Shown one piece after another: positions 13,610-14,236 of a stretch of DNA of 64,000 bases. The position numbers and the translations under genes were made by a program. Numbering within the stretch: position 1 is the first letter of the stretch; the number at the start of each line of letters is the position of its first letter. The notes beneath the pieces were generated by a model that did not search any database, was not told the DNA's origin, and was given only the letters and a program-made list of their open reading frames with translations. Source of the stretch: a virus (taxonomy: Duplodnaviria; Caudoviricetes); IMG/VR virus record IMGVR_UViG_3300023053_000001, positions 32,001 through 96,000 of that record, one strand, 5' to 3'.

Positions 13610-14236
13610 ATGCGTGACAAACTCCTCCTCGATGAAGCCCAGCTGCGCGAACGCCTGCTGATCCTGGCCGGTGAGCACGGCCCAGAGGTATTGGAAGCCA
13701 GTGCCGATGATCTCGAGCAACTGTGCCTGAGTCACGCTACCTACCACACGGTGGGCGCTACCCCGGAGCAGATCCTCAAGTCCGCTCAGCAGGTAATGCA
13801 TTACGGTCTACTGGCCAGTCTGGCGCGCCGCGCTGACGACCTGAACTTGGACCGCATGTCCCTGCGTTCGGAAACGCTCTTCAACGAAGCTGAAGAAGTA
13901 CCGCTGGACCTGCTGCGTCGCAATGCGCGCGTACCCCTGTTCAAGATCGGCCAGCGCGTGTACATGCCGGCCTCCGGATCAGACACCGTCGAGGAAGACG
14001 AAGATCCGGTCGTGGGGTGCATGGAAGTGATCGTAGCCGGCTACGAGCTGAGCTACGACTATGTCCAGTACCAGATCGGCCAGCTCCGCCCCGATGGGAT
14101 CATGGTGGATCTTATCGGTGAATGGGTGGATGAGTCTGAGCTGTACGCTGACATGGACTCGGTCACCGAAGCCATCGTGGGTACTCGCCCAGCCCAGCCG
14201 AAGATGCGTCCCCGTCTGTCTGTGGTCAAAGACTAA
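13610..14236 (+). CDS. Hypothetical protein with SH3-like segment and SspB-like C-terminal tail (208 aa)
   Basis: FKIGQRV...WVDESEL segment; ends RPRLSVVKD. Confidence 0.75.
   Translation: MRDKLLLDEAQLRERLLILAGEHGPEVLEASADDLEQLCLSHATYHTVGATPEQILKSAQQVMHYGLLASLARRADDLNLDRMSLRSETLFNEAEEVPLDLLRRNARVPLFKIGQRVYMPASGSDTVEEDEDPVVGCMEVIVAGYELSYDYVQYQIGQLRPDGIMVDLIGEWVDESELYADMDSVTEAIVGTRPAQPKMRPRLSVVKD

Follow-up and report, generated by a model that had tools for sequence, protein, structure and literature searches.

The window analysed here, a stretch of 64,000 nucleotides covering bases 32001-96000 of a giant soil phage genome of 268,458 bp with direct terminal repeats and 58% G+C, encodes an acidic protein of 208 amino acids whose C-terminus resembles the ClpX-binding (XB) tail of SspB. 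This tail is kept throughout a family of homologues, and it probably tethers the protein to the N-domain of host ClpX, whichever role is fulfilled there; judging from the sequence, the phage may redirect or block host protein degradation through this protein. A natural XB peptide on an unrelated domain would show modular reprogramming of host proteolysis by phages. The initial annotation had described the open reading frame and the likeness of its last residues, RPRLSVVKD, to the tail RPQLSIVK of an SspB homologue encoded by the same phage, and both reading frames were confirmed together with both tails (Table 1). It had also stated that the 208-aa protein contains no SspB domain, which agrees with the blank Pfam result and with the profile comparison described below.

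Table 1. Features in the region of the XB-tailed gene and the SspB homologue (positions count from the first base of the window)
Feature	Position	Strand	Evidence
Membrane-anchored coiled-coil protein, 250 aa	12608..13360	+	phrog_4952, E 1.4e-11
Gene for the 208-aa acidic protein with XB-like C-terminal tail	13610..14236	+	ORF translation
N-terminal helical domain, residues ~9-88	13634..13873	+	AF2 helices, family alignment
Small beta-barrel domain (chromo/Tudor/KOW/SH3-like), residues ~108-180	13931..14149	+	AF2, structural search
Short helix and proline-/basic-rich linker, residues 181-199	14150..14206	+	Lowest-conservation segment, pLDDT
XB-like tail RPRLSVVKD, residues 200-208	14207..14233	+	Alignment, scoring matrix, hhalign
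G+C-rich hairpin, 13-14 bp stem, directly 3' of the stop codon	14246..14276		
Phage SspB homologue, 176 aa, C-terminus RPQLSIVK	20393..20923	+	Pfam PF04386 E 2.6e-12, phrog_8945

The reading frame of the 208-aa protein starts with an ATG codon, at the same position at which its homologues begin, and ends in MRPRLSVVKD, followed by a stop codon at 14234-14236. The body of the protein has a net charge of -21 and a pI of 4.5, and searches of Pfam, PHROGs and the PDB sequences returned no match for the protein. When the family profile was aligned with the SspB profile by hhalign, the last 16 columns, which correspond to the tail, were aligned and nothing else was; a divergent SspB fold was rejected as an explanation of the protein on this basis. 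The hairpin that follows the stop codon is probably the terminator of the gene. A further G+C-rich inverted repeat, GGAGCCGGGGG...CCCCCGGCTCC, is located at 13537-13565, between the upstream spanin-like gene and the XB-tailed gene, and the arrangement suggests that the latter is a unit of its own bracketed by the two hairpins.

The likeness between the tails was evaluated by pattern and matrix searches. Six-frame translation of the 268-kb genome yields 1493 ORFs with a length of 50 aa or more, of which only two, those of the 208-aa protein and the SspB homologue, end in the pattern [RK]P.[LIVM].[VIL][VIL]K with zero to two additional residues. The sample of bacterial SspB tails came from 80 named genomes of gammaproteobacteria plus 40 chosen evenly across the class, with nothing taken from two unpublished genomes (G042 and G144) that had entered the tally; 116 of these 120 gamma-/beta-proteobacterial proteins end in [RK][PSGA]xL[RKT][VIL][VI][KD] with no residue after it. 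The tail of the 208-aa protein fits this consensus but for a Ser in position 2 and an additional residue. An XB scoring matrix derived from the 59 distinct 9-mers among the bacterial SspB tails ranked the SspB homologue first (12.8 bits) and the 208-aa protein second (9.3 bits) among 2475 stop-to-stop ORFs of the window genome. Since 9.3 bits barely exceeds the noise maxima of 6.4-9.1 bits obtained with five phage genomes (~12,600 ORFs), the tail of the window copy taken alone is only suggestive of an XB likeness beyond chance, and the proximity of this single-copy score to the background is what would favour a chance resemblance without function. In the control phages FLC1-1B and pf16, the SspB homologue alone scores high on the same matrix. 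One other ending in the genome, KPRFSIVKG (G000:C1:220973-221080, + strand, 8.0 bits), lies outside the window in an ORF of at most 35 aa and is probably spurious.

Ten credible relatives of the 208-aa protein emerged from a full HMMER search against 1.8 billion representatives, and a whole-genome profile search added two from the cultured Xanthomonas jumbo phages RTH11 (WJJ55000, 152 aa) and LucasX (LUCX_191, 235 aa); another candidate, P0012 (E 5e-4), was dropped as a false hit to a repeat protein. The resulting alignment contains 13 sequences, i.e., 11 metagenomic representatives and the proteins of RTH11 and LucasX, at 22-83% identity to the window protein. Neither Megablast nor tblastn, run with the region and the protein as queries against 50,697 phage records, gave a match, and the Xanthomonas-phage homologues came to light through the profile search alone; a word-based protein search with the family alignment found no further members. 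Moreover, a search for related loci with P0001, P0007 and P0004 found no relative among the viral contigs, nor did one with P0004 among the metagenome contigs.

A tail that varied freely among homologues had been set beforehand as grounds for giving up the proposal of a ClpX tether; across the 13 homologues, the tail proved to be the best-conserved segment. In 11 non-redundant members, mean pairwise identity reaches 53% in the tail and 60% in its LxVVK core, compared with 31% in the barrel, 22% in the helical domain and 18.5%, the lowest value of all segments, in the linker adjoining the tail. Only five columns of the 13-sequence alignment are invariant, three in the barrel (G114, Y154 and G157) and two in the tail (L203 and V206). 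The resemblance to SspB is more than chance because the tail is conserved family-wide, and a contrast of this kind between the best-conserved segment and the worst-conserved one next to it effectively refutes a chance resemblance, which is thus extremely improbable. On the XB matrix, members P0005-P0009 reach 16-26 bits, within the range of SspB itself (9.9-30 bits). The family member ranks first of 3060 ORFs in RTH11 and second of 2852 in LucasX, where its score of 6.5 bits is within noise.

The conserved core of the family consists of the barrel and the tail, since the N-terminal parts vary: the helical domain differs across the members and is much reduced in RTH11, where almost none of it is present, and some members carry an N-terminal extension. 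The net charge of the body ranges from -18 to -30 in the family, and the last 25 residues are basic in most members. As a separate observation, the extension, of 40-110 residues, is found in P0007, P0010, P0011 and LucasX LUCX_191 (L002:7037-7744), shares the motif Y-x3-[FY]G-x-W-x2-T, and does not occur in the window protein or most other members.

The tails of the family include RLSVVKD, KLSVVKD, RLSIVRGD, FLTVVKD, HLTVVK, HLSVVKD, HLKIVK (twice), KLSVVR and QLSIVR, as well as degraded forms in two members (HLRSV and FLSVVG), and their consensus is [RK]-P-x-L-[STKR]-[VI]-V-[KR] followed by an optional Asp. The terminal residue is D in five of the 13 members and GD in one, and it is missing in seven. 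Two features of these tails would speak against binding to ClpX. Firstly, Ser is the commonest residue after Leu in the family, unlike in bacterial SspB, where this position is taken by Arg, Lys or Thr and by Ser in 0 of the 116 sampled tails. Secondly, a residue after the final K/D is present in 6/13 members and in no sampled bacterial SspB. The modest window score, the short linker and the two degraded tails may be counted on the same side, as may the need of SspB for two tails to bind strongly.

Such departures from the bacterial sample (the Ser in second position, the added Asp) are what would be expected if the tail were a conserved short linear motif for another phage or host partner, with a convergent or coincidental likeness to XB, given that conservation shows function and not the partner. 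Furthermore, the SspB-like proteins of RTH11 (L003:10001-10540) and LucasX (L002:9953-10519) lack the LxVVK end and terminate in VDFRAPRKPKS and ADFRARRKPSS instead, so that the docking site would not be common in that form in these phages. We take these ends, of the DFRAxRKPxS type, to resemble the tail type of alphaproteobacterial SspB. Neither phage has a gamma-type XB tail on any ORF other than that of the barrel protein. Nevertheless, a partner other than ClpX is considered rather unlikely, as the family tails HLTVVK and HLKIVK compare with bacterial SspB ends (RRPHLTVVK and RPHLKVVK), the invariant positions are precisely the Leu and the second Val, and the motif is C-terminal behind a basic, proline-rich stretch, as it is in SspB. 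The Ser after Leu, in turn, also occurs in both phage SspB homologues with canonical tails, those of the window phage and FLC1-1B, which use L-S-[VI]-V-K. In the E. coli protein, Park et al. are said to have reported in 2007 a role for Leu161 and Val164 in the ZBD complex.

A model of the 208-aa protein was generated as a monomer by AlphaFold2 with 11 sequences as input (mean pLDDT 77). The N-terminal domain is predicted to form helices at residues 9-23, 26-29, 32-45, 52-77 and 82-87. It is followed by a barrel (116-174, pLDDT 73-90), which contains the motif WVDESEL and may be of the five-stranded small-barrel fold class, with four long strands (116-123, 134-147, 152-159 and 166-174) in the model and then a helix at 182-190. 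Its best VIA-align matches are chromo/Tudor/KOW/SH3-like small barrels at Z 5.5-6.8, a common-fold level at which function cannot be transferred. These matches include the MRG15 chromo barrel (2f5k), the NusG KOW domain (2xhc) and HspQ (5ycq), which cover residues ~106-190 at Z 5.8-6.8 and represent a likeness of fold and not a sequence relationship. In particular, HspQ/YccV, the Lon specificity-enhancing factor, matches the barrel over 59 residues with an rmsd of 4.1 (Z 5.8), and unrelated barrels score alike. Foldseek returned no match below E 0.02 for the model in the PDB, and a structural search of the ESM Atlas gave weak leads only. The two best matches in BFVD (E ~1e-6) are unnamed viral proteins, one of which has 235 aa, the length of LucasX LUCX_191, and may be a family member. 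Residues 192-208 are disordered (pLDDT <50). The SH3-like segment and the flexible linker that the initial annotation had read from the sequence are thus borne out by the model, the former at the level of the fold.

SspB is a dimer in which the end of a disordered C-terminal region binds to the N-domain of ClpX (bioRxiv 10.1101/2022.11.06.515074). The family resembles SspB (E. coli and Salmonella; PF04386; tail RPALRVVK) in being acidic and in ending in [RK]P-x-L-x-V-V-K after a disordered linker. However, it differs from SspB in its body, which is made up of a helical domain and a small barrel and contains neither a PF04386 match nor an ssrA-binding domain, in the much shorter linker of ~20 residues from barrel to tail, and in the extra Asp of some members. 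Phage homologues of SspB are already known, e.g., pf16 gp18 (PMC5587285) and the cytoplasmic gp039 of Erwinia phage RAY (PMC10299810). Like the 208-aa family, these two proteins and the SspB homologue of the window would presumably act through the ClpXP of the host; the tail of pf16 gp18 is KKPTLRVVK. All three, however, are true SspB-domain proteins with which the family has the tail alone in common. In the literature, no description was found of a non-SspB phage protein with an XB-type tail.

The reading in which the tail tethers the 208-aa protein to the ClpX N-domain, in any role, is on balance probable, because the tail is kept in 13 homologues with L203 and V206 invariant, because hhalign aligns it to SspB and the AlphaFold2 model shows a folded body followed by a disordered tail, and because the genome also contains an SspB homologue with the same type of tail. 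The interpretation first offered for the gene, that of a ClpX tether, is thus supported in silico by tail conservation, fit to the XB consensus, a disordered linker and a non-SspB body. A worry raised by the terminal Asp is weakened by its restriction to 6/13 members and by engineered peptides in which XB, a GGS linker and a bait recruit ClpXP to degron-less GroEL, which is then degraded (PMC12373786). The activity of these peptides implies that function is not prevented by residues following the XB lysine, and that an adaptor needs no more than a binding module and XB.

Within this reading, the role considered first is that of an SspB-independent ClpXP adaptor delivering cargo held by the barrel, a plausible and still tentative proposal in which we infer ClpX binding, cargo and stimulated degradation alike. 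The protein would be cytoplasmic and strongly acidic, with a helical N-terminal domain and a chromo/Tudor/SH3-like beta-barrel. Its XB-like tail would dock on the zinc-binding N-domain of host ClpX, as RPALRVVK of SspB does, and the docked tail would tether the protein to ClpXP. The conserved barrel and the variable helical domain would then hold a cargo protein, which would thereby be handed to the protease, so that the protein would act as a natural adaptor in a mode like that of the engineered XB-linker-bait degraders. The CLIPPER/GroTAC XB-linker-bait peptides and the FKBP12-XB split adaptors have the same architecture of binding module, linker and XB (PMC12373786); they are synthetic, whereas the 208-aa protein is natural and its cargo hypothetical. 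With so acidic a body, candidates for the cargo might include basic factors that bind DNA or RNA, and defence proteins. A natural counterpart would be UmuD, whose internal XB-like tether reportedly delivers UmuD' to ClpXP in trans (work ascribed to Neher et al., 2003). UmuD, like the 208-aa protein as read here, is a non-SspB protein that tethers a partner to the ClpX N-domain through an SspB-like peptide, but its motif is near the N-terminus, its fold is different, and it is a protein of the host and not of a phage.

Docking could also occur with nothing delivered. An abundant protein acting as a decoy or competitor would shut host SspB and N-domain-dependent substrates out of the ClpX N-domains, with the effect that phage proteins are protected or host regulation is deranged. 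The evidence from the tail (conservation and fit to the SspB consensus) applies equally to this alternative; the shortness of the tether and the failure of the Pfam and PDB sequence searches to reveal a cargo-binding family also speak for it. Moreover, the free peptide RGGRPALRVVK binds to the N-domain and acts as an inhibitor both of lambda O, FtsZ and MqsA degradation and of SspB-mediated delivery (PMC3983244, PMC8808172). However, a blocker would need no more than the tail, which leaves the conserved barrel and its three invariant residues unaccounted for, and it would also compete with the SspB homologue of the phage itself, whose tail is the same. In addition, Bolon et al. are said to have found in 2004 that a monovalent XB peptide binds weakly. 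A decoy is, altogether, unlikely. The tail could, alternatively, bring the protein itself to ClpXP for degradation on schedule, while the barrel and the helical domain perform its actual job. Tail conservation and consensus fit apply here as well, and XB fused to the C-terminus of eGFP causes a moderate loss of eGFP dependent on ClpX and ClpP, although degradation by XB alone is slow (PMC12373786). The 208-aa protein shows no obvious pore degron of a known class at either terminus and, moreover, a timer leaves its pairing with an SspB homologue unexplained, which makes a self-timed substrate highly unlikely.

If the adaptor reading is true, use of an XB tail would for the first time have been demonstrated in a protein family other than SspB, and the XB peptide would be a portable module moved between domains by phages. 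A jumbo phage would then possess a kind of 'PROTAC', in which a private cargo-binding barrel joined to a copied ClpX-docking peptide marks chosen host proteins for host ClpXP, a view that is doubtful. It would provide a new handle on what giant phages need to have destroyed or protected in the host cytoplasm, and the family is a possible source of natural binding modules and tail variants, e.g., L-S-V-V-K-D, for degrader design. RTH11 and LucasX are cultured Xanthomonas phages that carry the gene, so that a bench test is possible now.

Neither a ClpX zinc-finger domain nor ClpP was found when both were looked for in the genome of the window phage. Phage-encoded ClpX or ClpP was therefore rejected, and any partner must be the host enzyme. 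The protein encoded upstream of the XB-tailed gene has a weak Rz-like spanin match (phrog_1403, E 7e-4), and each of the three phages compared (3/3: the window phage, LucasX and RTH11) has a spanin-like gene as the next gene upstream of the family member. By tblastn, this protein is 37-38% identical to the products of LucasX 171943-172596 and RTH11 95230-95850, just before the respective family members. The family member is, in turn, located 3-6 kb upstream of an SspB-like gene in 3/3 phages. As the three phages are related, their common gene order says little about a functional link.

Several minor observations concern the SspB homologue and its surroundings. A word-based protein search with the homologue returned only itself. 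In comparison with bacterial and other phage SspBs, an insertion of ~17 residues, around TLADATPVFDPEFGMVQ, is found inside its SspB domain. Just upstream, a 244-aa ORF (19487-20221, + strand) contains a Lys/Ala-rich histone-H1-like stretch (AKKIAAKTAAKKAAAKK...) and matched no Pfam or PHROG family. Lastly, the tail-coding stretches of the XB-tailed gene and the SspB homologue (20897-20920 in the latter) share codons (CGT CCC ... CTG TCT) as well as residues; either a bias in codon use or an ancient swap of the tail module could account for this.
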